From the NCBI GenBank assembly GCA_000004695.1, contig CM000152.2:5568001-5632000 (forward strand): a stretch of DNA of 64,000 nt, given 5' to 3'. The position numbers and the translations under genes were made by a program. This DNA comes from Dictyostelium discoideum. Its lineage: Eukaryota. Positions 2,898-35,090 of this stretch are shown here, piece after piece. The stretch's first letter is position 1. Each line of letters opens with the position of its first letter. Under the pieces are notes generated by a model. That model was not told the origin of the DNA. It saw only the letters and a program-made list of their open reading frames with translations, and searched no databases.

Positions 2898-3588
2898 TAT
2901 GTTAATACTAATAATAATTGAAAAAAAAAAAAAAAAAGATTTGAATTAATTAAATCTTACTTTTAATATCTAAGCCACCATTGAATTTTGAAAAATCTTT
3001 TAATTCTACTTTTTCACCCAAAAAATTTAAAAAATCATTATATTCTTGAGAAACATTTGAGCTGATATTTTTAAGCATATCATTATCATCACGTTGAGAC
3101 TCTTTGCAATAGAGTAGAGCAGATTTAATAACTTTATTAAATTCTGGTTCACAAACTTTTACTAACTCTTCTTGAATTGATTTATCTGTAACTTTACATA
3201 GAGGTACCTTTGTTAATTCTGGACGGACACTTGTAATAACATTCAATGATGTTGGTCTCATTTTAAGGAATGATCTTGTTGTTTTTGATTTTTGTAATGA
3301 ATCTTTATTTGCTCTTACCTCTTCAAATCCTTTTTCAGTACAAACTAATAAATAGAAATCATCTGATGAATTACCAACCTTTTTAATACAAACTAAAATT
3401 GGACCATTAGGTGAACTTAAACTCATAAACGTTTTATGAGGTTTACCATAGAATTGTTGTTTATATATTGATGCCATAACTTTATTATTATCATTATTAT
3501 TGTTATTTTGATTGAAATTATTATTCCAATTTGTTTCTCCATCAGTTACACCACCTTCAATTCTATATCCTTCACAATGTGAAAACAT
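2015..3588 (-). CDS. Rap GTPase-activating protein (Rap1GAP-family catalytic domain). 4 exons, approx 3588..2961, 2856..2653, 2540..2230, 2136..2015.
   Basis: ATG at 3588. Exon 1 encodes ...DFLNFLGEKVELKDFSKFNGGLDIKS. Exon 2 encodes NNSHGTHSIYSQINDVEVMYHVATMLPFF...ERRKLISLDRVVIIF. Exon 3 encodes ...VPNYGPPLPDPPIFEKDDSFRNFL. These match the Rap1GAP catalytic core ([24 protein letters not shown] / EIMFHVSTKLPY / VPFFGPPLPDPAVF). Donors are GTAAGA, GTATGT and GTAATT, with (A/T)nAG acceptors. Phases are consistent and the stop is TAA. Confidence 0.8.
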
Positions 3589-4245
3589 TTTTATTTAAAA
3601 TATATATATATATATATATTTTATTTTATATTATTACTTTTTTTTTATTTATTTTTAATTATTGTTTTATTATTTTATTATTATTATTATTTTTTATTTA
3701 TTTTTTATTTCTAATTTTATATTATTACTTTTTTTTTTTTTTTTTTTTTTCTTATTAAATCAATTTATGTATATGTGTTGGGATTTTTTTTTTATTTTTA
3801 TTTTTATTTTAATTTTTTTTTTTATTCTTTTTTTTTTATTTTTTTTATTGTTTTTTTTGATATGTTTTTAAAATAATTTTATAAAAAATTCTAAATGTGG
3901 AATGAAATGTTTAATTAATTATTTTATTTGAACAATATAAAATTTTTATATATACTAATTTTGATTAATAATTGATAGTTTTTCTATGAGTGTTATTATT
4001 ATAATTTTCAAAAAAAAAAAAATAATAAAAACAATTGATATTGGGGTCCAAAAAAAAAAAAAAAGATAATACTGATGAAAATATTGATGTTTTAAAATAA
4101 AAAAATGTAATAATTGATTTATTTTTAAATATTAATTTTAATAATAATAATAAAAATAATAATAACAAAAAAAAAAAAAAAAAACCTTAATGTTGGAATT
4201 GATTTATTTTTAAATATTAATTTTAATAATAATAATAAATAAAAA

Positions 4246-4292
<47 letters not shown>

Positions 4293-4451
4293 TATTATCA
4301 CAAACTGACACTCCCCCTTTTAAATCTATTTTTGTCACTCACTAAAAAAATAATAAAAATAAAAAAATAAAAAAAATAAAAAAAAATAAAAAAAAAACAC
4401 ACACACACACACAACTAAACCCACAAAGATAATGCACAAAAGCATTAATTT

Positions 4452-4491
<40 letters not shown>

Positions 4492-5808
4492 TTTGGGTTA
4501 AATGATATTAATATATAAATAGAAGTGCACATGATTGAGAGAGATTTCAATATTAATTTTTAACAAAAATTGGATGATCAACGAATCATACAATTTAAAT
4601 ATATAATTTTTATCATCTCACACAAAAATACACACTAACACACCCCAAAAATACAAAGAATTAAATTCTAAAAAAAATAAAAATAAAAATAGAAAATAAA
4701 AAAAAAAAAAAAGAAAAAAAAAAACACTATTTTTTGATATTGGATTATTAAATATATATATAAAAATTTTATTATTTTTTTTTTTTATCTGTTTTCTATT
4801 CTTTGTTAAGTTTTTTTTTTTTTTTATTTCTTGTGGAATTTGCCTTGATTTAAAAGAACAAAAAAAAAAAAAAAAACACCTTTTTATAAATTTTTTTTAA
4901 ACTATTATTATAATATATTTCCATGTTTAAAAAAAAAGACACTTTTTTTAAAACAAATAATTTTTTTTTTTTTTTTTTTTATTTTAAAAATTTTACAATT
5001 ATTTGTTTTAGAGCGATTGCCTTGTGAAAAAATAATTTTTAAATTAAGTTTAAAAAAAAAGACACTTTTAAATTAAATTGTTATATTCAAACACAAATAA
5101 ATAAAAAAAAAATAAAATAATAATAATAATAATAAAATGTTAATATAATTTTTTATTCGTAGATTTTTATTTATTGTTATTTTTTAAAATCTATTTGTTT
5201 TCGGATCTTTTTTTTAAAAAAAAAAAAAAAAAATATGTGAATATATATTTATATATATTTTTAAAAATAAGGATAAACAAATGGATTGTCAACTGATCAG
5301 TTTTTTAAAAAAAAAAAAAAATACCACAACAATGGTTTTCAACTGGCAAATTGCAAATTTTATTTTTATTTTTTTTTTATTTTTTTATTTTTTTATTTTT
5401 TTTATTTTTTTAATTTTTTATTTTTTTATTATTCTTCACCTGCGATATTTGAAACAGTTAAATTTCCTTTAAATAGTATAATTTTTATTTATTATTATTT
5501 TTCCCCTTCTTTTTCAAATATGTATAATTAAAATAAAAGTAAAGTTTTTTTAATATTATTATTTATTTTTTTTTTCTCTTATATTTGATCAAAAAAAAAA
5601 ATAATAATAATAATAGTAATAATAATAATAATTAAAAAAAAATAACATAAAAAGAAAAGAAAAAAAATATTCGAAAATAAAAAAAAGAAAAAATAATTAA
5701 AAACAGATAATAACTTAAATTTTGTTTAGTGTTTTCAATGTAATGAACTATTTAAATTAATTTTGGTGTTCTTTGAAATTTGAACCGTCAAAAAAAAAAA
5801 TCATTTTT

Positions 5809-5844
<36 letters not shown>

Positions 5845-5952
5845 CATTTAAATTGAATTTTTATTAATTTTTTTTTTTTCTCACATCACCTCCAACAAAT
5901 AACAACCAACTTTAATTTTTCAATTTTTTTTTTTTATTATTTTTATTTTTAA

Positions 5953-5983
<31 letters not shown>

Positions 5984-6240
5984 TTTTTTTCTAAATACAA
6001 AAAGGAAAATTTCTTTACCCCACAATAAAAAAAAAAAAATATAAAAAAATAAAAAAATAAAAATTAAATTTTTTTAAAAAAAAAAAAAAAAAAAAATATT
6101 ATAATTAAACAACTCCTCTCATACGACAAATATATAAATATAGATACATAATAGTAATAATAATAATAATAAAAATAGAGTAAATCAAATCAAATATATT
6201 ATAATATACATTAAACAACACAAACACAATAACTATTAAA

Positions 6241-8373
6241 ATGTATGGCAGAACTGCAAGAGCCTCTGAGCTCTTGGATAATTTAAAAGGTGAGATTGAT
6301 GCCCTCAACCATGAATTATCATTATATAAACACCAAAAAGATGACTATGAAAGAAAATGTATGTAAAATTTATAAATAATTTTTTTTTTTTTAAAAAAAT
6401 TTATAATTAAATAATGTAATAGTTCAAAATCAATTAGCAGAATTAAATACAATACAACAAACATTATATGATTTGGAGAGGGGTCAAAATAAGATGAAGA
6501 TACATTATGAAGAGGAGATTAGACAATTAAAGAGACAACTTGAACAACAAAATATAAATGCCAGTCAAAGAGATTTGAATAGTCCTTCAACATTTAGATC
6601 AAATAGTCCAGCTCCACCAGCACAACATAATAACAACAACAATAATATCATCAACAACAACAATAATAATAACAATAATAATAATAACATGCAAAGAAAT
6701 ACACCAACCCCAACTATTCCTGATAAAGGTCAACCAAAACAAAGACAACGTTCAGGATCTGGCGAATTTTATCAACAACCAGGTTTAGGTCCACAACAAT
6801 TAAATTTCCAACAATTAAATTTACAACAACAACAACAACAATTACAACAACAACAACAACAAGGAAGTGGTCAATCTTTCCCATCATTATCACCATTAGA
6901 TTCAAATAGACATCCAAAAGAAATGGGTAATAATATGAGTGGTAATAGTATGAGTATGAATAACAATAATAACAATTTAAATAAAAAACCAGATATGGAA
7001 GAAGTTAAAGAAGAAGATAGAAGAAGACAGTATGTATTCATTTTATTTAAATTTTTTAATAATTACATCACACACACTCATATATATATAAATATTAATA
7101 TATTTCTTTTTATTATTTTTTAAATCAATAATAGTGATACTGAAATGAGTGAAGAGAATGGTAAAGAAAAAGGTACAGATTGGTTAGTTGGATATAATCC
7201 AAGTGTTCAAACAAACCTAAATATTGATCTTCTTCATAATTTACAACACAATAGTGTTGTTTGTTGTGTAAACTTTAGTAATGATGGTAAGTATTTGGCT
7301 ACTGGTTGTAACAGAAGTGCTCAAATCTATGATGTAGATACCGGTAAAAAAGTTCAGTAAGTAATTTATTTTTATTTAAAAAAAAAAAAAAAAAAAAGAA
7401 ATTAAAATATTAATTTATTTTTATTATTATTATTATTATAATTATTATTATTATTATAGTGCATTTGTTGATGAAAGTGAAAAAGATGGAGATTTATATA
7501 TTAGATCAGTATGTTTTTCACCAGATGGTAACTATTTAGCAACTGGTGCTGAAGATAAAACTGTTAAAGTTTGGGATATTCACACTAAAAAGATTCAACA
7601 TACTTTCTATGGTCATGAATTGGATATCTATTCTTTGGATTACTCAAGCGATGGTAGATTCATTGTCTCTGGTAGTGGTGATAAGAAAGCAAAAATCTGG
7701 GATATTGAAAAAGGTAAATGTGCTTTCACACTTGGTAATGAAGAAGTTGGTCCAAAGAATGGTGTAACTTCTGTTGCTATGTCACCTGATGGTAGATTGG
7801 TTGCAGCTGTATGTATAAAGAATTATAATAGTAATAGTAATAACAATGATAAAGTGAGAGATATAAAGAGTTAAATTTAAACTAACATTTTTTTTTTATT
7901 TTTTTAATTTTATTTTTTAAAAAAAAAAGGGTTCATTGGATAATATTGTACGTTTATGGGATGCTCAAACTGGTTATTTCTTAGAGAGATATGAAGGCCA
8001 TTTAGATTCAGTTTATTCAGTTGCATTCTCACCAGACGGTAAATCTTTAGCATCAGGTAGTCTTGATAAATCCTTGAAACTTTGGGATTTATCCGGTTCT
8101 AGATCACGTTCAAGATGTAGAGCTACCTTTAATGGTCACAAAGATTTTGTCTTATCTGTAGCATTTTCACCAGACGGTAGTTGGTTAATTTCTGGTTCAA
8201 AGGATAGATCAGTCCAATTTTGGGATCCAAGAAATGGTACCACTCATATGATGTTACAAGGTCATAAGAATTCTGTAATTAGTGTTGCCCTCTCTCCAAA
8301 GAATAATTCTCATGGTGTGTTTGCTACTGGTTCAGGTGATTTCCGTTCAAGATTATGGAAATATGACTCTTAA
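6241..8373 (+). CDS. tupA: Tup1/Groucho-type transcriptional corepressor. N-terminal coiled-coil Tup_N region, Gln/Asn-rich linker and C-terminal WD40 propeller. 5 exons, approx 6241..6358, 6423..7029, 7135..7356, 7460..7808, 7930..8373.
   Basis: Exon 1 encodes [39 protein letters not shown], then a GTATGT intron. The WD repeats read [21 protein letters not shown]..., [99 protein letters not shown]. The C-terminus [16 protein letters not shown] parallels yeast Tup1 ATGSGDCKARIWKY. The symbol is inferred from Dictyostelium nomenclature and not verified. Confidence 0.85.
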
Positions 8374-8768
8374 ACAATTCCACCTCTCTCACTCTCCCTC
8401 CCCCTCCACTCTCGATAATTCATATTCTTTAATTACAACTTTAATATGAAAAAAAAAAAAAAAAAAAAAAAAAAGAAAAAAAAAATTTAAAAAAAAAAAG
8501 AAAAAAAAAAAGAAAAAAAAAAAAAAAAAAACTAAAATAATTCTCTTAATGAATTATGTATTAAAAGTAACAACAATCCACAATAATCCCAAAATAAAAA
8601 ATAAAATAAATAAAAAAACTGAATAAATTAAAAATATTTTGTATTATTGATTTCAATTATTTCATTTTTTTTTTTTCAGTCTTTGATATCCTAAAACTAC
8701 TTTTTTTTATTACTTGGAATTATTTTTTATTTATACAAATTATTATTATTATTATTTATTTTATATCA

Positions 8769-10232
8769 CTATATAAAGATAAGTTCTTTTACATTTGGTA
8801 AATCATTTTCTTGAATTATATGATCATATAACCGATTACAAATTGTTAATGATTTTACAGAAGGAATAATAAATGTGTCAAGTTTTTTATTAAAACTAGA
8901 ACCCAATTCTAATGATTCAACCAAAGGTATTACATTAATTGGAATATCTTGATTAAATTTATAACCTAATCTTAATTTTTTAATTGAATCCATGGATCCA
9001 ACTATTAATGGTTTATTAAATTCTGCACCAAGTTTTAAATATTTTAAATTATTAGGAAGATAACCTTTGTTAATTGATTGATTATATCTATCACCCAATA
9101 TTAATGAAGTTATTGAAGTTGATGATAGATTTGCATTTTCAAGTGGTTGATCAAAACAATAACCAAGTTCTAATGATATAATTGATTTTGGAATAGAGTA
9201 TGATTGTAACATTTGGTTAAAAATTCCTGTAATTGATAATGATGTACAAGAATTTGGTATTGAACCTTCAATTAGTGGTTTATCAAATGATACACCTAAA
9301 AATAAATCAACAACAGAGTTTGGTATTGAATTTGGTAAAAGGTTTTGATTAAAATTACTTTTAAATGTTAATTTTAATAAAGAACAAGGTAAATCACCTG
9401 GTGAAATTGGATGATTAAATTTTGAAAATGTTAAATCTGTAATGGATTGACCAAATGAATTTGCTATGATTGGTTGTGACCAACCATTTCCAAAATAAAG
9501 TGTTTTCAATTGTGATGGAAGTTGACCAATTTGAATTTGTTGATTGAAATTATTACCAAATATTAATGTAGTAATACAAGTTGCACCTAAATTTGCATTC
9601 TCTAATGATTGATTAAATGAATGACCAAAATTTAGTAATGTTAAACTTTGTGGTATTGAATATTCTACAATGGGTTGATTAAATAATAAACCAAATTCTA
9701 AAGTTTCCAATTGTTCAGGTAAGCAATCTTGTTGAATTGCTTGATTAAATATTGAAAATCTAATAGTTTTAACTGAATTTGGAATTGATCCATATGATAA
9801 CTGCTCATCATATCCTAATAAATTCAATTCTGTAATGGAGTCTGATTCAAAATATCCCTCTCTTAAATATCTCTTAAAATTTGGAAGTGATAGTTTAGTT
9901 ATTGATTTTGGTAATTTAATTGTTGACGGTTCCATATTATCCAAAATAATAATTGATTTTAAAAAATTTTTATTTTTATATTTATTTAATCTTTTTATAT
10001 CTAAAAAGGTTTTTTCATTCTCACCTATTCTTTCAATCGTACCTTTTAATAATTGATTTGAAATAATTTTTCTTAAATATTTATTTTTCCAAATTTTATT
10101 ATAAAATAATTCACCAATTTCATTATCATTTAAAATTTTAATCAATTGATTTTCTTTATTATCATTCCTAATTAATTTAAATATTAAACTATATTCTTTA
10201 ATAATTATAATTGTACGATTTCTATTATTCAT
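8769..10232 (-). CDS. FNIP-repeat protein (Dictyostelid-specific ~22-aa repeat family), single exon.
   Basis: The 487-aa ORF has about 15 tandem copies of the F-N-x-P-(I/L) repeat unit (LKFGxxFNQPIxxGxLPxSLxxL). FNIP repeats are characteristic of Dictyostelium. Confidence 0.8.
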   Translation of the reverse strand: MNNRNRTIIIIKEYSLIFKLIRNDNKENQLIKILNDNEIGELFYNKIWKNKYLRKIISNQLLKGTIERIGENEKTFLDIKRLNKYKNKNFLKSIIILDNMEPSTIKLPKSITKLSLPNFKRYLREGYFESDSITELNLLGYDEQLSYGSIPNSVKTIRFSIFNQAIQQDCLPEQLETLEFGLLFNQPIVEYSIPQSLTLLNFGHSFNQSLENANLGATCITTLIFGNNFNQQIQIGQLPSQLKTLYFGNGWSQPIIANSFGQSITDLTFSKFNHPISPGDLPCSLLKLTFKSNFNQNLLPNSIPNSVVDLFLGVSFDKPLIEGSIPNSCTSLSITGIFNQMLQSYSIPKSIISLELGYCFDQPLENANLSSTSITSLILGDRYNQSINKGYLPNNLKYLKLGAEFNKPLIVGSMDSIKKLRLGYKFNQDIPINVIPLVESLELGSSFNKKLDTFIIPSVKSLTICNRLYDHIIQENDLPNVKELIFI

Positions 10233-10386
10233 TTTTTTAAACTAAAATAAAAAAAAAAAAAAAAATCAAATCAAAAAAAAAGTAAAAAAAAAAAAAAAAA
10301 AAAAAATCATTGAGAGTTTTAAATTTAAGTTTTTTCTAAAAAAAATCATTGAGAGGAAAAAAAAAAAGGTAACCAACCTATTGATT

Positions 10387-10523
10387 CCATCAGGCTTATT
10401 TTCGTCATCACTTATTAACAAAATGATATTGCCCCATAAAATTGTTACAAAATGGAAGAGGTAACAATTTTATGAGGCAATATTATAATGCTAATAAGTG
10501 ATGACGAAACTAAGCTTGATGAT
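10387..10523. repeat. Long imperfect inverted repeat (hairpin). Arms ~61 nt at ~88% complementarity, 12-nt loop aaaatggaagag. It is embedded in a relatively GC-richer non-coding block (~10380-10760).
   Basis: Left arm: catcaggcttattttcgtcatcacttattaacaaaatgatattgccccataaaattgttac. Reverse complement of right arm: catcatcaagcttagtttcgtcatcacttattagcattataatattgcctcataaaattgttac. The flanks are A/T homopolymers. No conserved ORF lies across it. Confidence 0.6.
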
Positions 10524-11875
10524 GATAAAGGAAATTTTAAAAAAAAAAAAAAATCCTCGTTATTTATGATTTCTTCTGATACATCATCGAGACACCATGC
10601 CAATGCCACCATCCTATCTGCCATATCTTCCAAGGCAGGTTTGCCTCATTGAAAGAATTGTACTCCAAGTTTCTGGTTGTGAAAACTGAACTATCACCAC
10701 AAATTAACAAGAAGCTCCTCCATTTTCTTGGGATAATTTCCAAATATTGATAAAAAAGATGTTTGCAAAATTTGCCATTTAAATTATTTGATGTGTAATT
10801 ACATTTTTAAAAAAAAACAATTTAAAATATATTTATATTATAATTAATTACTTATATTTGTTAATGATTATTTTATTTATATTTGTTAATAAAATAAAAA
10901 ATAAGGGAATTTTAAAAGAGCTTTAAATAGTTTCTTGATTTACAACGAATTCAAATTTTTAATTTTATTAAATTTTATTTTAATTATTTTTTTATTTATT
11001 TTATTTTAATTTTTTTTTTTTTTTTTTTTTTGAAATTCAATGGTTATGGATATTTATTTAACAAATCAAATTATTTAAAAGGTATGTTAATTTATTGATT
11101 ATTTAAAAGGTATGTCAATTTTTTTATTGATTTTCTATTTTAATTTAAAAAGTTTTTAAAATCTTTTGGGAAAATGAAATGGAACAAAAAAAAAAAAAAA
11201 AAAATAACTTAATAATATTTAAATTATTTATTATTATTTTTAATATAGAGCCTAAGTTTATTAAAAAAAAAAAAAATTCATTAACTCCCATAACCATAAT
11301 CTAATCAAATAAATCAATATTTATCAGTTATCTTTTGGAAAATGAATAAAAAGTAAAAAATAAAAATAATTTAAAAACAATAGTAAGGAAATTCAACCAA
11401 TATTTAATTTTATTTACCCCCTCACCATATTAAAAATAATTATTATTTTAAGTTATTATAACTAAAGATAAAAAAATTATTATTAATATTAAAGTAATAT
11501 TATTAGTTATGGATTCAAAGTGAAAAATAAAAAAAAAGTAAAAAAAACTGGATTAAAAAAAAAAAAGATCACCTGAACACCTTAAAGAAAGATTGGAGAG
11601 AAGATTGAATGCATTACAATTAGGTGTAGAAATTGGTAATGAATATAGAAATGATAAAGTTAGACAATCACATAGGGGACTCCAACATTTTCAAAAGAAC
11701 AATATCAATTATTGGTTACCATTGTTGTTGAATTGGTTAAAAAAAAAACAAAATTTAGGTATGAATGAAATTGCTCAATTTCTTAATAATAATCAATTAA
11801 ATAAATAAAAGAAAAATAAAACTTTTTTTTTTTTTTTGGCGAGTTGTAAATTAAAATTTTATTTACTGTGTTGTT

Positions 11876-13670
11876 TTAACAAGATGGAGTGCCAGTTATT
11901 GGAGTGAGTGATGTTGATCTTTGGATGTAACCAAATTGGTGAGCACCATTTACAGGGATTTCACCTAACCAACTTGGGAGTTTGTAATTGTTGGTTGAGG
12001 TTTGATCAGCATTCCATATGTCTTGAACGTTTTGTAATTGGAAGTTGAAACCTCTTACTGGTTTAGAACCTTTGTTATTGATGGTAGCATCAACTTGAAT
12101 ATAGTAAACATTGTTACTGTACCATTGATTAATAATCTTTTGGGTAACATTTGCTGAACACGCTGATGGAGTTGGACTTGGTGTTTGAGTTGGGGTTTGT
12201 GTTGGTGTTTGTGTTGGGGTTTCAGTTGGTGTTTGTGTTGGGGTTTCAGTTGGGGTTTGTGTTGGAGTTTGAGTTGGAGTTTGAGTTGGTGTTTGAGTTG
12301 GAGTTGGGGTTTGGGTTGGGGTTGGAGTTGGAGTAGTTGGTTTAGTTGGTTTAGTGTTACCAAAGTATCTGGATGGTCTTGGGCATTCTCTGGTCCAGTT
12401 TTCTTTATTGTTTGGAAGAAAAAAAAAAAAAAAAATAATAATTAGTTTATATTATCTTTTTTTAAAAAATAATAGATTAAAAAAAAAATGAAATAAATAA
12501 TTACCTTGACAAACTGGTACAACACTCCAGCCTCCAATGGTACCACAAAGACTTGGGAAAAATGTATCGGTAATATTTTCTAAAACTCCACCAATTAAAA
12601 CAGTATTATGATTAATACCATAACCTAATTTGAAGATTTCATTGGCATCCATTGGTAATTGATTGAAGCAACGTTCGCAATACATAACTGAAACATATGA
12701 TGCAAAAATAACTTTATCAAATTTAGTCCACATGGCAGCTGCTGAGCACCTATTTTTTTTTTTTATTAAATTATGAAAAAAAAAAAAAAATATTAATAAG
12801 AATAAAAAAAAAAAAAAAAAAAAAAAACAATTTAATAAAATAAAATAAAAAACATACATTGGACATGGTTCACCAGTAGTATACAAATAATGATCTTCCC
12901 AAGTAGCTTTACCATAGAGATCAGTGCTATATTTATATGAATTTAGTTAGAAATATTTAAATTTTTCTTTTTTTTTTTTTTTTTTTCTTTAAAAAAAAAA
13001 TCTTCCAAAGAAATAATAATAAATAATAATAATAATAATAACTTACCAATTCATGATGGCTTTAACTTCACCATGATACATTCTTGAACCACCAGTGTTG
13101 GCACCAGTACACATTAAAGTACCGTTTTTGTGAACAATAGCAGCACCAAATTTAGAATTATTCTCAACAGCAACATTAATTGCACTAATATTTAAAATAA
13201 AAAATATATTTTAGAATAAAAAATAAAAAATAAAAAATAAAAGAAAAATAAAAGGAAGTTGATATATTTACATTCTCATATATTTTGCATGGAATTGTTG
13301 ATCATCCTGTAGTTAATATAATTATTTTAAAAGTTAATAATAATAAAAATAATAATAACAATAATAATAATGTGTAATAACAATAAAGAAAATATAACTT
13401 ACTGGCGATAAATCTTTGAATTGAGTTAAATCTGACTATATGTTTTGATTGATAAAAAAAAAAAAAAAAAATGAAAAATTAGTTTTTTTTTTTGCAAAGC
13501 AAAAATAAAAGAAAAAATGTGTAAAAAAATAAAAAAATAAAAAAAAAAAAAGATTAATAAATTACAGGTGCAATATCGAAATAAGCTGATTTTGGACAAT
13601 TGTTTTTATGTGCTTTTGCAGTTGAAAAAGCAATGATTAATAAAATTAATAAAGAGTAAATTAATTTCAT
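11876..13670 (-). CDS. Secreted CDA-fold (cytidine/deoxycytidylate/TadA-type zinc-dependent) deaminase fused to a Thr-Pro-Gln linker and a C-terminal Cys-containing carbohydrate-binding-like domain. 7 exons, approx 13670..13566, 13435..13403, 13306..13272, 13183..13046, 12926..12857, 12749..12505, 12402..11876.
   Basis: Exon 1 encodes the signal peptide MKLIYSLLILLIIAFSTAKA. The deaminase core reads KFGAAIVHKNGTLMCTGANTGGSRMYHGEVKAIMN...YLYTTGEPCPMCSAAAMWTKFDKVIFAS. This carries the H(A/G)E ... PCxxC zinc motif and aligns with TadA (VGAVLVHNNR...HAEIMAL...LYVTLEPCVMCAGAM). It is followed by (TPTQ)n and ...ACSANVTQKIINQWYSNNVYYIQVDATINNKGSKPVRGFNFQLQNVQDIWNAD...LPSWLGEIPVNGAHQFGYIQ...TPSC*. 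Donors are GTAATT, GTAAG and GTAAAT. There is a possible 1-nt ambiguity in my reading of exon 5. Confidence 0.65.
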
Positions 13671-13681
13671 TTTTTTATGAT

Positions 13682-13724
<43 letters not shown>

Positions 13725-15349
13725 AAGTTAATTATTTAATTAAAAAAAAAAAAAGAAGAGATAGGTAATGTTACAAGTGTAATAATATTGAAAGTAATTA
13801 ATATCAGAAAAAGAAAAAAAGAAAAAGAAAAAAAGAAAAAAAAAAAACAAAAAAAAAAAAATAAATAAATAAAAGATTTTTTAGTCTCCTCAAAATGAGA
13901 ATAGTTTGAAAATAATTATTTTAAAAAATTAACCAATCATCTGAGCACAAGCTTGTAATTAATAATAATAATAATTTTGTGATTTTATCGTGATTGGGAC
14001 ACAATATTATTATGAGAAAAATAGTATACAATAATTTTATCTAAAGTATTTTAGATTTTTAATCAATGATTGGCTAAAAAAAAAAAAAAAAAAAAAAAAA
14101 TTTAGATTTGGGAAGATATTAAAAATTGTGTGGGCGAGGGGGGTCAGCAATGAACGATGATTTTTTTTTTATTGAAAAACATTACAATAATTTTATTTTA
14201 TTTTTTTTTTTTTCTGCCGAGCCAATCAAAAAATTATCTCGTTTTACGATTATTAGAAATAATTCGTTTTGTCGAAATTTTACAATCAAAAAACCAAGAA
14301 CACAAAAAGGAAATCGTTTTTGGTCAAAAATATTCAACAGAAATTAAAAAGAACACAATATAACTTTCTTTTATTGATTTTTTTTTTTTTTTTTTTAAGT
14401 TTTTTTTTTTTTTTTTTATCTATTTTTTTATTTTCATTTTTTTTTTATTTAAAAACTTAAAAAGAAAAAAAAAAAAAAAAGAAATAATTTTTATGACATA
14501 AATTCATATACTAAATAAAGTAATATTTATCTAGATTATCATTATTAATAATAATAAAAACAATTAAAATTATTTAAATAATCTTAATTGGGCAAAATAA
14601 AAATTAAAAAAAAGGTGGTTAGAATGTGTATACTTGTGGTTAAAGAATAAAAAAAAATAAATAAAAAAAAAATGTGAAACTTGAAAATTTAAATTAAGGA
14701 ATGTTTTTTATGTAATACACATGTTTTAAAAGCAAACCCCTTAACAGTAAACACACAGTTGTGTTCAGTGTAATGTAAACACAAAAAAAAAAAAAAAAAA
14801 AAAAAAAAATAATACTAAAAAATAAATTTATTTTTTAAAGTCAAAAGACGTTATATACAAATAAAAATAAAAAAAATAAAAAAAAAATAATTTCTTTGAA
14901 AAATTACAGAAAATAAAGAAAATCTTAAAAAACCAATAATGCAACGGTTTTTAAATTTATTTTTGTACTCCCTAAGCTAAAGGGTACTAGTATTTTAATT
15001 ATTTAATTTAAAAATAATTTTTTCAACTTTTTTTATTTTTATTTTTTTTTTATTTTTATTTTTATATTTTTTCTCTTGTAACCCACCAAACTTAGCCGAC
15101 ATATGTGAGGTGGAGGGTTTGCATGTAATCACATTTTTTTATAATTGTTTTTTTTTTTTTTTTTTATAAGTTTTTTTTTTTTTTTTTTTCTTTTCTTATG
15201 TTCTTAAAAAAAAAGTAATAATAATATAATAATAATAAAAGTTTAAAAAAAAATAAAAAATAAAAAAAGACCAAAGTTATAAATATATTTAAAAATAAAA
15301 ATAAAAACTTTATAAAAATATCTAAAGAAATAAAAAAAAATAAAATAAA

Positions 15350-15939
15350 ATGACATTCTTGAGTAAAAAACCTCAAATATTTAAAAATATTGAAAAAGAT
15401 ATAAATAAAATAAAATTTAAAAAATCAAATAAAATAAAATCAGATTGTAATAATAGTAATAATAAAAATGGTTTGATAGAGTGTATATCAACTTTAGAAG
15501 ATGATAATCCATGGGATGTTTATACCAAAATAATGAAAGAAGAAGGATTTTTAAAAAGTTGTATATTAGATTTAAATGATGGTGAAGTTAATAGTAGTAG
15601 TGGTGCATCACCATTAAATGTTGCATACCAAGAATACCAAGAAATTAAAAATATTTTGGAAGGTAATAATTCAATTTATATAAATTGTGACTCAACTAGA
15701 TTCTTTATATCAAATTCAAATGACATAATGATTACTGGTATAAGTTCAAATTCATTATCATTCATATTACGAAGAACTGCAAATAAATGTATTATTGGAA
15801 TTTTTCAACCTTCAACAATTCTAGTCGACCATGCTCATTGTAAAGTCTCTGATATTTATAATAAAATTACAAATTTTGATAAAAATGAAAGAATTACAAA
15901 TTTAATTTTTTCATTCTCCGAAGATAGTATAAAAAATAT

Positions 15940-15949
<10 letters not shown>
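15350..15949 (+). CDS. Profilin-like domain protein, paralog 1 (199 aa). N-terminal K/N-rich extension plus C-terminal profilin fold. Single exon.
   Basis: WDVYTKIMKEEGFLKSCILDLNDGEVNSSS...RFFISNSNDIMITGISSNSLSFILRRTANKCIIGIF...VSDIYNKI aligns with the profilin signature (W..Y.D.L......AAI.G.DG.VWA.S ... KY.VI.....VIRGKKG.GGITIKKT.QALV.GIY). The N-terminus MTFLSKK is shared with the two paralogs. Confidence 0.65.
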
Positions 15950-15979
<30 letters not shown>

Positions 15980-16484
15980 AAATCTTTGTAAATAAAAAAT
16001 GTATTTTTAAATCAACCAAAAAAAAAAAAATATCTTGTTTATTTTTTATTTTTAATTTTTTTTATTTATTTATATTAAAAGAGCTGCAAACAAAAAAAAA
16101 ATCCAAAAAAAAAAAAAAAAAACAATAATATTTTGACACATGACATTTCAATGATGCGATTGTTTTTTATTGCAAATTTCCAATTTAATATAGATATTTT
16201 TTTTTATTTTTTTTCTTTTTTTTTTTTTTTTTTCTTTTTTTTTTTTTTTTTATTTTTTTTTTTAAGTGCCAGTATTTTTTAACAAAATCGTTAATATTAA
16301 TCTTTTGAATACGAAATACTAAAATGAGAAATTAAATTGTTTTTTTTATATTGTTTTTTTTTTTTTTTTGCTTTCATTTCCTTTTTTTTTTAATAGCTTT
16401 GCTACTAAAAAAATATCTTTTAATTTATAATAATAATATTACTTTTTTTAAAAAAAAAAATTAATTAAAAAAAAAAAATAAAAT

Positions 16485-18894: not shown

Positions 18895-21680
18895 ATGAAT
18901 TACGAAATTGTTATGGACGAGCATCAAAGTTTGTATTAAAAAAAAAAAAAAAAACTAAAAATAATTAAATTTTTATATGTAAATATTAATATAAAAAATT
19001 CAACAGAATTCATTGATGAAAATTTAAAGAATTTCTATGGAGAGCATAAACATTTTGTAGAATGGATGGATTCAAGATCATTAGCATCAAAAAGATTTAA
19101 AAAAAGATTAATTGTTATTGGTGAATATAGAATTTTAAGTGTAAAAAAAGGAAAAGTTTCAATATCTTTAAATAAAAATATTCATTTTTATGATATAGCT
19201 GATATAATAGTCGTTGAAGATACTGTATGTATTTTTTTTTTTTCTCAAAAATATTATTATTTAAAATACTAACATATAATTATTTATTAATTTTCAAAAA
19301 AAAAAAAGATTGAAATTAGACAAAAACAAGTTATAAAAGGTGATCAAATTGGTATATTAATAAAATCAAAACAAAAAGAAAGTTTACAAATGATATTAAA
19401 ATTGTTAAGAGAAAAGATTAGAAATATTACACATGGATTTCCAAGTACTAGTCAATTGAGAATTAATGCAAATGAGAGTTATTTATTACCAATTCAAGAG
19501 AAAGTTATTGGAATAGCTGATAATTTCATAGAGACTTATAAAGCACAATCATCCTACAAAAATAATGAACCAAGTACAGAGGTGATTAGATTGGTTGAAA
19601 AGTATGTTCAAGATTGTTGTAGAGAATTTGATTTATCAAAATGTCCAGGATTTGAAGGTAAAAGTGAATTAAATTTTCAAATTGATACTGTAATTTCATC
19701 ATTAAATTATAATGGTTATTTCAATTCAATTATTATTAATGGTAATAGTTGTGGTGGTAGTACTAATATTGGTGGCAGTGGTGGTGGCAGTGGTGGTGGT
19801 AATAGTAGTATAGGAGTTAATCAAAAAGGTTTAGTTGAAAAAGTTGGTGAATTATTATCAACAAATTGTTGTGTTAGAAAAATATCAATTTTTAATTGTA
19901 AAGATGATGATCAAGTATTATCAACCATTGGTACATCGTTAATTGGTAATCAATTTAATTTATTACAAGTTATAGATTTACATAGTAACCATTTAAATCA
20001 ATCAACATTTCAAACATTTGCAGATGGTATTGAAACAATGACACATCATTCACTTAGATATTTAAATCTATCAGATTGCAACCTATCATCAAGATCAGTT
20101 GAAATATTATTTAATTCATTCTGTAAGAATAGTAAAATCTCTACATCATTAGAGTATTTAAATTTATCATACTCAAAATTCGACGAGGTTGGTAGTAGTT
20201 CATTCACAAGTTGGTTAGCAAAGATCAAAGATGATAATGTATTAAAGTTTTTATATTTAACCAATTGTAATTTAAATTTAATTGTGATTGGAGCACAACT
20301 TAGAAATTTACCTTTGCTACGTGTATTGGATATTTCTAATAATAGATTAGAGAGAACTGAAATTGAAGAGTTAATTGCATTCATAAAGAATTCAAGGGCA
20401 TTGGAATCATTGAATATTTCAAATTGTTCACTTAATCATGACTATTTCCTCTACATTTGTAATACACTAAATAAGAATGAATATATTAAACATTTAGATT
20501 TAAATGTATCACATAATCAAATTTCAAAGTCGCCAAGTATCTTTGTTAGCGCATTGGAGTTTCTTACTATGGTGAATTCGTTAAATTTATCTCATATTCC
20601 CATTACTTATAAAACTTTGATTAGAGTTGTTGATTCAATTAGAATCTATTGTAAAAATATTAGAGAATTGATATTGGATGCTTGTTTCTCCCATTCAAAT
20701 GATAAATCTCATGATGGTATTGATTTCATTAATGAGTTGAAACAATTCCTTAGAGAGAGAGAATCATTGAAATCTTTATCTATAGGTGGTGACAATTCAA
20801 ACTACTTATCACCAAAATTGGTTATACCATTAATTGAATATTTAACCAACGAAAATGGTACATTGGAGCAATTGAATATTCAACACTCCCATCTTGGTGA
20901 TTCAGTTATGCCCTATATTGCTAATTTATTAGAACGTAATTCAACTTTGAAATCTTTATCATTGGATAGAAATTATTTCACTATTAATTCCTTCCAAACT
21001 CTATTGCTATCATTACAAAATAATCATACACTTTTAAATATACCTTTCCCATCATATGATTTTGAAAAAATTTTAATTACATTACCAACAGCTCAAAAGA
21101 AATCATTATTATTTAATTTACTTTATAGAATTCAATCAATTTTAGAAGAAAATGGTGGTTGGAGAATACCTGATCCTCATTTTTATCCTGTACCAACTTC
21201 ATTAACTACTGGTAATAATACTAGTGGTGGTTCAAATTTACAATTATTAGGTGGTGGTAGTGGTGGTAGTGGTAGTAATAGTGGTGGTTCTAATTTACAA
21301 TTACAACAACGTCCATCTTCACCAACTAGTAGTTCAAGTGGTAGTGGTTATAGAAGTAAAAGCCCAACACCTGTAACAACTTCATATGGTTCTTCTGCAT
21401 ATTCACAACAACATTATGATAATTTATCATTACCACCTCCACCTGTTGATAATTATTATAACAATAACTATTATCAAAATGAAAGTGAAGGTGGTGATGA
21501 TGATTATTATAATCATCAACAACAATCATCCCAACAAAAATATCAAAATAGAGCAACATTAAGTCCAACAAATAGAAATCAACAACAACAACAATACCAA
21601 AATAGAAATCAAAGAATTGAATTAACTGATAGTTTTGTTGAAGCTGTTGATCATTTAAATGATGAAGAAAATCTTGATTG

Positions 21681-21681
<1 letters not shown>
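18895..21681 (+). CDS. Leucine-rich-repeat protein with an N-terminal PH-like domain, CARMIL-like. 3 exons, approx 18895..18928, 19007..19224, 19309..21681. Ser/Gly/Pro/Gln-rich C-terminal tail.
   Basis: The exons encode MNYEIVMDEHQ / KFIDENLKNFYGEHKHF...KRLIVIGEYRILSVKKGKVSISLNKNIHFYDIADIIVVEDT / IEIRQKQVIKGDQIGIL.... This is followed by >10 RI-type LRRs (LRYLNLSDCNLSSRSVEILFNSF..., LRVLDISNNRLERTEIEELIAFIKNSRALESLNISNCSL). It resembles the CARMIL N-terminus (RILVLSPHRVFLL...). No CP-binding motif was seen, so the CARMIL assignment is tentative. Confidence 0.6.
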
Positions 21682-34003: not shown

Positions 34004-35090
34004 GTGGGTGTTGCTAAAGTTATTCATATTATTGTTCCTGTATTGATTATTCATATTGTTGCTCTGACAGATATTGTTGTTCATATTCGGATTATTATTG
34101 TTATTCATATTATTGTTATTGTTCATATTCATGTTAGTGTTACAATTGTTAGAGTTCATATTGTTATTATTATTATTATTTTAAATGTTATTATTATTAT
34201 TATTATTATTAAGTTGGTTATTAAATAAGTGATCTATATGTTGAATTTGATTATTTTCGTTTCCTATAGTCATTGTATGATAGTTGTTATTGTTACAAAG
34301 ATTATTGTTCATTGGATTATTAAAATCATTNNNNNNNNNNNNNNNNNNNNNNNNNNNNNNNNNNNNNNNNNNNNNNNNNNNNNNNNNNNNNNNNNNNNNN
34401 NNNNNNNNNNNNNNNNNNNNNNNNNNNNNNTATTCATACTATTATTATTCATATTATTATTCATATTATTATTATTATTATTCATATTATTCATATTCAT
34501 ATTATTATTATTATTCATATTATTATTCATACTATTATTATTATTATTCATATTATTATTATTCATACTATTATTATTATTATTCATACTATTATTATTA
34601 TTATTCATGTTATTATTCATACTATTATTACTGTTATTATTATTATTATAATTTAAAGGTGAAGAATTTAAAGAAGAAGGTGAAGACTGATTAGTTTTAT
34701 TAATATTAGTACCAGAATTTACGGAAGAGACAAATTTAAAAATATCTTGAAGGGAAGAAGACTTTTCTAGAGAGAACAAGTTGTAGATCTTGTTAAAGCT
34801 ATAAAAATAATGTGTATGCTTAAGTGTTTGCATCAAGGAGGCCATATTGGGATCACCAATAGTAAAAAACAAACGCTCCATTGAATCTAATAATCTATTT
34901 GCGTCATCGATTGAAAATGGACGTTGATGAGCCCAGGAATTTCTAAAATTATATATTTCATGTAAAAGATTTCTCAATTGAATAAAATCATCTGAAAAGA
35001 AAGAATTCAACATATATTTGTGGAAAAATTGAATAATACAAGATAAATCCCAACTTTCAAAATTTAAAATATTATTACTGTTATTGTTAC

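Follow-up and report, generated by a model that had tools for sequence, protein, structure and literature searches.

Precursors of the microRNAs (miRNAs) of Dictyostelium discoideum are hairpins of 83-133 nt that fold at -0.43 to -0.70 kcal/mol/nt at 22 °C and are mostly intergenic (PMC6161686; PMC11014262). Dictyostelid miRNA loci are less AT-rich than the spacer that surrounds them (PMC11014262; PMC6161686). The miRNAs themselves turn over very fast under weak constraint: D. discoideum has a single one in common with D. firmibasis (PMC11014262). Hairpins of unusual length and near-perfect pairing are read as newly evolved miRNAs, and how new dictyostelid miRNAs originate is explicitly stated to be an open question (PMC11014262). 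Here we describe a long hairpin-forming inverted repeat of D. discoideum that resembles these precursors. It lies at positions 10388-10521 of a 64,000-nt stretch of the genome (GCA_000004695.1, contig CM000152.2, positions 5,568,001 to 5,632,000), referred to below as the window, inside a non-coding island between a deaminase gene and a gene for a protein with FNIP repeats. The locus is neither a demonstrated small-RNA gene nor a recognisable transposon. On balance we lean towards a young inverted duplication, inert or incidental, that is decaying neutrally and is at most a proto-miRNA.

The hairpin is built from two arms of 61 nt each, at 10388-10448 and 10461-10521, which are 89% complementary and are separated by a 12-nt spacer or loop at 10449-10460 (AAAATGGAAGAG on the plus strand). 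The left arm is the 5′ arm of a plus-strand RNA and the 3′ arm of a minus-strand RNA. These values bear out the initial annotation, made from the sequence alone, which had described arms of about 61 nt, about 88% complementary, around a 12-nt loop at 10387-10523. Folded as RNA, positions 10380-10530 form one continuous stem-loop on either strand, with a minimum free energy of -73.4 kcal/mol (plus) and -74.9 kcal/mol (minus). Dinucleotide shuffles of the same segment average -22 ± 3 kcal/mol, giving z scores of -16.3 (plus) and -17.2 (minus), and none of 200 shuffles folded as well, so that the expectation that both strands would fold far below shuffled controls held true. The energy amounts to -0.49 kcal/mol/nt at 37 °C and to -0.62 to -0.70 kcal/mol/nt at 22 °C, for a stem-loop of 134-151 nt. 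When both strands of the 64 kb were folded in 150-nt segments advancing by 25 nt (5110 folds; mean -15.9 kcal/mol, standard deviation 7.2), the six best values all fell on the hairpin locus. The next independent folds of the window, at 11876-12025 and at about 21400-21550, reached -45.6 and -45.5 kcal/mol, and its remaining long inverted repeats all consist of low-complexity A-runs and T-runs. The structure is real and exceptional, far beyond chance.

The evolution of the hairpin can be followed in a second genome labelled D. discoideum (GCA_054859385.1), here called L004. Its relevant segment (JBTAPF010000020.1:1937197-1950660) was reached through its FNIP protein, the sole close relative of the one in the window at 96% identity, and was compared with window positions 3001-16318. 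The two are collinear over the deaminase gene, the island, the FNIP gene and tupA, with about 92% nucleotide identity over the stretch, and the hairpin and the block beside it are present at the same place in L004. At the four-fold degenerate sites of the FNIP gene, 7/139 positions differ (5.0%). Spacers differ by 8-14% between the two genomes, and 20 codons of the 487-residue FNIP protein carry amino-acid changes. Judged from these alignments, the difference appears to be a deep intraspecific or cryptic-species divergence, which makes L004 useful as a comparator for any non-coding feature of the window.

The hairpin differs from its L004 counterpart by 10/134 substitutions (7.5%) and one 1-nt insertion, and the longer palindrome that includes it differs at 13/148 positions; the AT-rich flank differs by 5.6%. 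The excess of the hairpin over neutral sites (7.5% against 5%) is not significant (Fisher p = 0.20). The left arm is identical at 55/61 positions, the loop at 12/12, and the right arm in 57/62 alignment columns, with the L004 insertion beside position 10479. L004 carries the better fold (-78.3 and -82.1 kcal/mol, with nearly all of the 152-nt equivalent paired): it pairs 58-60 of 64 stem positions, compared with 57 of 64, or seven mismatches, in the window. A further 7 bp or so on each side still pair in L004 and have eroded in the window, which places the extent of the ancestral palindrome, as we reconstruct it, at 10381-10528.

Pair by pair, the stem has decayed separately in the two genomes. 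Eleven stem pairs differ between the lineages, and ten of them form a standard pair in at least one; the eleventh, 10418/10491, has changed on opposite sides in the two lineages, a pattern consistent with an ancestral G-C. Between the two sequences, the pair-by-pair comparison of the stem found neither a mismatch common to both nor a compensatory two-sided change, and the changes that keep G-U pairing (two on the plus strand or three on the minus strand) are about as many as expected at random. With each arm serving as the internal reference from which the ancestral state of the other is read, the window lineage has gained seven defects since the split and L004 four plus a bulge.

This comparison indicates that the palindrome of the common ancestor was essentially perfect over at least 64 bp and probably about 70 bp, because the mismatches are lineage-specific and uncompensated and the partner arm shows the ancestral base. 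Uncompensated stem mismatches appear to have been gained independently in each lineage at a rate no lower than that of neutral sites, and both sequence and pairing appear to evolve without detectable constraint. Within a lineage the two arms have diverged by 7-11%, as much as orthologous arms have between the lineages (8-10%). The duplication thus would date to about the time the lineages split, unless the identity of the arms was preserved up to that point. Invariant runs in the arms extend to 14-19 nt at most, and therefore any 21-nt product would differ between the lineages. The palindrome accordingly looks young, and it looks single-copy in the 64-kb window and the related loci searched; a sequence-specific selected function seems absent.

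A short history would account for these features. At about the time when the lineages split, a short unique segment may have been copied by fold-back, through snap-back or template-switch synthesis, leaving arms of about 61-70 nt around a 12-nt spacer inside the island of about 400 bp between the deaminase and FNIP genes. Such an event fits better than transposition because the spacer is only 12 nt long and there is no target-site duplication. If the palindrome were transcribed, its RNA would form a near-perfect duplex of 60-70 bp, which Dictyostelium Dicer-like enzymes would be expected to cut into heterogeneous 21-nt RNAs. The locus would then be raw material for a microRNA, a proto-miRNA, and not an established one.

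The primary transcripts of miRNAs (pri-miRNAs) carry a T-rich motif ending in G at their start, which for pri-mir-1176 is spaced by 281 nt (Liao 2018, PMC6161686). On the minus strand of the window, a T-rich stretch ending in G (TTGTTTTTTTTTAAAAATG; T9-A5-TG) runs from 10824 to 10800, about 280 nt upstream of the hairpin base, and is found in both lineages. It is a weak match to the start motif, and such strings are common in this AT-rich DNA. No comparable motif occurs upstream on the plus strand. Transcription from the minus strand, with the GC-richer block as leader, is the more plausible direction, because only A-runs lie upstream on the plus strand while the minus strand has the T-rich stretch ending in G.

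The strongest competitor of neutral decay is expression: the hairpin may belong to a gene for a hairpin RNA, either a microRNA of recent birth or a hairpin small interfering RNA (siRNA) locus. RNA polymerase II would then transcribe the stem-loop, the DrnB/RbdB microprocessor (or DrnA, as long as the stem stays near-perfect) would process it, and the resulting 21-nt RNAs would be loaded into an Argonaute. We regard this as a real but minority possibility. The initial annotation had likewise pointed to the geometry of a pre-miRNA or small-RNA precursor. That part of its proposal stands as far as length, energy and GC content go; the rest finds no counterpart in the published loci compared, an Rfam family or an invariant 21-mer, and the stem has gained uncompensated mismatches at or above the neutral rate.

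Several points weigh against the reading of neutral decay. Length and energy per nucleotide are like those of known D. discoideum pre-miRNAs, and the hairpin shares with dictyostelid miRNAs an intergenic place and an AT content below that of its surroundings. Neutral sequence change is itself compatible with expression: dictyostelid miRNAs turn over fast under weak constraint, and lack of conservation is no bar to a young miRNA because turnover between close species is very fast. Our reconstruction of the decay compares two haplotypes with no outgroup, so that the ancestral states are those inferred from the partner arm, and the total absence of common mismatches may reflect selection, or gene conversion from arm to arm, that maintained a perfect stem up to the split. 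Finally, the comparison with published loci is incomplete: it covers those in Tables S1 and S3 of Liao 2018 and Table S4 of Edelbroek 2024, at none of which the hairpin lies.

Other evidence on expression points both ways. The high-confidence set of Kozomara & Griffiths-Jones, as applied to D. discoideum (Liao 2018, PMC6161686), asks for a folding energy below -0.2 kcal/mol/nt, and the hairpin reaches -0.49 at 37 °C; it also asks for an imperfect stem with at least 60% of the mature duplex paired, and the 57/64 pairs of the window and 58-60/64 of L004 lie well within that range. The window allele, with seven mismatches in 64 pairs, is already imperfect, and long hairpins with few mismatches have been described as a mark of new miRNAs in this group. 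The weak T-rich motif on the minus strand, with its spacing like that of pri-mir-1176, would also suit a transcribed locus.

The same is true of the Rfam matches. The whole window gave no match to Rfam 15 at gathering thresholds, so that the hairpin falls short of any family score. In a permissive scan the sub-threshold matches were all generic long-hairpin miRNA models of plants and animals, on both strands, and membership in a known RNA family was rejected. The best of them, MIR4387, scored 58.3 bits against a threshold of 84, and because it matches both strands, the resemblance is a generic one between long hairpins, in structure only.

Against expression stands the absence of the hairpin from the loci of Liao 2018 and Edelbroek 2024, which draw on several small-RNA libraries from growth and development. 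The FNIP open reading frame (ORF) beside the hairpin has an exact copy in GCA_054883475.1, an assembly of the same strain type, and that copy places the locus near 5.65 Mb on a chromosome of 6.43 Mb, a size that fits chromosome 3 of D. discoideum. Published chromosome 3 miRNA loci lie only at 3.66 and 3.74 Mb, compared with about 5.65 Mb for the hairpin. None of the 12- and 13-mers that tile part of the arms occurs in the supplements of Liao 2018 or Edelbroek 2024 or in the full texts searched. No 21-mer is conserved between the lineages and no compensatory change supports the stem, and no 21-mer of the hairpin matches elsewhere in the window at three or fewer mismatches. Four ORFs of the region are also missing from the gene-call index that holds the FNIP RNA contigs, a weak point, as the look-up needs an exact ORF match.

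We also compared the energy of the hairpin at 22 °C with those of failed candidates that Edelbroek 2024 left unnamed (ddis_Cluster_1065 and ddis_Cluster_1680). Only off-centre segments came near, so that the comparison was uninformative. Table S3 of that study holds three failed candidates without coordinates, and the order of the list suggests other chromosomal positions for them.

The most specific form of the expression proposal is a microRNA gene caught at birth, which arose by inverted duplication at about the lineage split and is transcribed and diced. We hold this to be unlikely. If it were true, the two alleles, with 4-5 and 7 stem defects, would document how a perfect hairpin of siRNA type turns into an imperfect one of miRNA type, and would offer a natural allelic pair for studying the origin of dictyostelid miRNAs. 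An expressed hairpin would in any case be a clean example of the earliest step in miRNA birth, single-copy and descended from a perfect palindrome. If it is not expressed, as we are inclined to think, it is a rare long palindrome surviving in AT-rich spacer, and a warning against reading function from pre-miRNA-like geometry by itself, even at z = -17.

A relic of a fold-back or miniature inverted-repeat transposon, similar to thug-S and with the arms as terminal inverted repeats, is a quite improbable source. The initial annotation had raised a degenerate transposon terminus as a possible origin of the fold-back, and that suggestion found no support in the searches. An element of this kind would consist almost wholly of its two inverted arms, as the hairpin does, and thug-S elements give rise to multicopy miRNA loci in D. 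discoideum. Yet the hairpin is single-copy in the window and about 100 kb of related loci; in the 64 kb it stays so even when three mismatches are allowed over a 27-nt arm pattern. No copy was found in about 70 kb of other dictyostelids (loci L005-L008, described below) or in metagenome contigs. The same site is occupied in both lineages, and the flanks hold no direct duplication: in the window, ACCTA stands before a palindrome that runs from TTGAT to ATAAA and is followed by GGAAA, and in L004, ACTTA stands before a palindrome that ends in ATCAA and is again followed by GGAAA, with no direct repeat.

That the hairpin is a cis-acting DNA element of the FNIP promoter, for instance a cruciform or a site for a dimeric factor, is scarcely credible: its position, 110-155 nt before the FNIP messenger RNA (mRNA) contigs begin, would suit such a role, but a palindrome of 2 × 61 nt is far larger than any factor site, it diverges by 7.5% against 5.0% in the block and at four-fold sites (an excess that is not significant, p = 0.20), and the FNIP gene itself seems restricted to D. 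discoideum.

Some other candidates were tried and rejected. The window holds no transfer RNA genes that would provide the context for a tRNA-linked retroelement. A DUSE-like promoter motif for non-coding RNA, CCCATAA at 10443-10449, is an imperfect match that L004 does not conserve (CCTCATAA). An origin as foreign or contaminant DNA was dismissed when plasmid and phage collections and metagenome contigs gave no match. A scan for bacterial promoters and terminators stayed at background level and is irrelevant to a eukaryote.

The island around the hairpin stands out by its composition. GC content is 0.255-0.36 over 10300-10799, compared with 0.095-0.165 on either side, in line with the initial annotation, which had noted a block clearly less AT-rich than the nearby spacer; the island measures about 400 bp. 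Between the hairpin and the GC-richer block, a run of 15 A (T15 on the minus strand) occupies 10538-10552 and is kept in L004 save for a length change and one substitution. The block itself, at 10555-10760, is about 35% GC and non-coding; it may be what is left of a decayed sequence, or it may serve a non-coding transcript as its leader. Hairpin and island recur at 100% identity in GCA_054883475.1, and the gene calls of that assembly leave the interval from the end of the deaminase gene, near 11876, to the FNIP gene empty.

The minus-strand frame of about 80 codons, startless and without recognisable similarity, that had been reported for this block was recovered as 78 codons at 10567-10800. 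It has no match in Pfam, has no words in common with any of 5.8 billion proteins in a word-index search, and has no match in an exhaustive HMMER search of 1.84 billion cluster representatives. All six frames of the region gave no match in Pfam, against which alone the frames other than this longest one were checked. A coding exon or pseudogene of a neighbour was rejected, as tblastn of the six frames against the rest of the window returned nothing, and a structured RNA was rejected at folding z scores of -0.17 and +0.69, which give no signal. The block differs from L004 by 10/199 substitutions (5.0%), the neutral rate. It is not constrained coding sequence, because its indels between the lineages (7, 1 and 1 nt) shift every reading frame. 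From this comparison the block appears to be non-coding DNA that evolves neutrally, free of coding constraint.

Other dictyostelids were searched through the deaminase. At four deaminase-paralogue loci of D. dimigraforme and D. firmibasis (L005-L008), the hairpin and block are absent; these loci are not syntenic with the window, because they lack tupA. In one of them, 24 nt of the right arm (10466-10489) match L006:9784-9807 (D. firmibasis CM069770.1) at 87.5% with an E value of 0.004-0.008. The match falls within the coding sequence of a sedolisin-like (Pro-kuma_activ) gene directly downstream of the deaminase paralogue, the same relative place as the hairpin. The idea that the island is a relic of a sedolisin-like gene was rejected, since comparison at the protein level gave only low-complexity matches. 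The 24-nt match is probably due to chance, as far as the alignment can tell.

The FNIP-repeat ORF that adjoins the island (8769-10232, minus strand) encodes 487 residues. Logan contigs resembling its mRNA span 10278-8513 and 10266-8742 and stop short of the hairpin, which lies 110-155 nt upstream of these 5′ ends and is therefore outside the FNIP transcript. An orthologue was not found in D. firmibasis, D. citrinum, D. dimigraforme or D. purpureum, where the best matches are paralogues of 30-36% identity. By these searches, D. discoideum alone appears to have this FNIP gene and, upstream of it, the hairpin. An exact 18-nt direct repeat (AAAAAAAATCATTGAGAG; CTCTCAATGATTTTTTTT on the gene strand) stands at 10299-10316 and 10338-10355, in the interval that separates the hairpin from the start of the FNIP mRNA. 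L004 has kept one copy, in surroundings that are only about 65% alignable. This repeat may be an FNIP promoter element.

On the other side of the island, the CMP/dCMP-deaminase-like gene at 11876-13233 (minus strand) encodes 383-387 residues, among them a signal peptide, a long linker of (T/P)-rich repeats and one further domain at the C terminus. Within the gene, the stretch 12055-12400 stands out, and the linker shows strong GC skew at 12100-12400. All relatives found in other dictyostelids consist of the deaminase domain alone, at 221-242 residues. Between this gene and the island, at 11004-11120 on the plus strand, a T-run of about 26 ends in G, as does the motif published for pri-miRNA start sites, whose form it matches. 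Next come ATGGTTATGG and a duplicated AAATTATTTAAAAGGTATGT(T/C)AATTT unit with GTATGT strings that resemble splice donors, and neither an ORF nor a structure is evident there. Farther along the window, the fold at 21376-21550 (minus strand, -45.5 kcal/mol) is an interrupted stem of about 31 bp within an ORF of 763 residues (19390-21681), in a repetitive coding stretch rich in Asn, Gln and Tyr. A run of 100 N at 34331-34430 is an assembly gap of the source sequence.

Compared with known systems, the hairpin stands closest to the miRNA loci of D. discoideum (PMC6161686; PMC11014262). Like them, it is a single-copy, intergenic stem-loop (130-150 nt) with an energy at 22 °C of -0.62 to -0.70 kcal/mol/nt, against the published -0.43 to -0.70; it is less AT-rich than its spacer and is restricted to one species. 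Unlike them, its stem is longer and more nearly perfect than most, it has no conserved segment of mature length, and it is known here from sequence alone. The multicopy miRNA loci of thug-S are also hairpin-forming inverted sequences of D. discoideum that could feed the miRNA pathway, while the hairpin is single-copy in the sequence searched and shows no target-site duplication. In the plant model that Allen et al. reportedly put forward in 2004, young MIRNA and hairpin-siRNA loci are born by inverted duplication, with arms that are copies of the future target gene. The hairpin shares with these plant loci a long, near-perfect fold-back, restriction to a lineage and mismatches that accumulate over time, and differs in that no parent or target sequence of its arms was found in the 64 kb searched. 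Palindromes with short spacers also arise spontaneously, through fold-back or template-switch repair. They are perfect at birth, decay without compensation and possibly at an accelerated pace, and are usually lost fast. The two arms of the hairpin, its very short spacer and its uncompensated decay all match this pattern; what sets it apart is its survival in two lineages with a divergence of about 5% at neutral sites.

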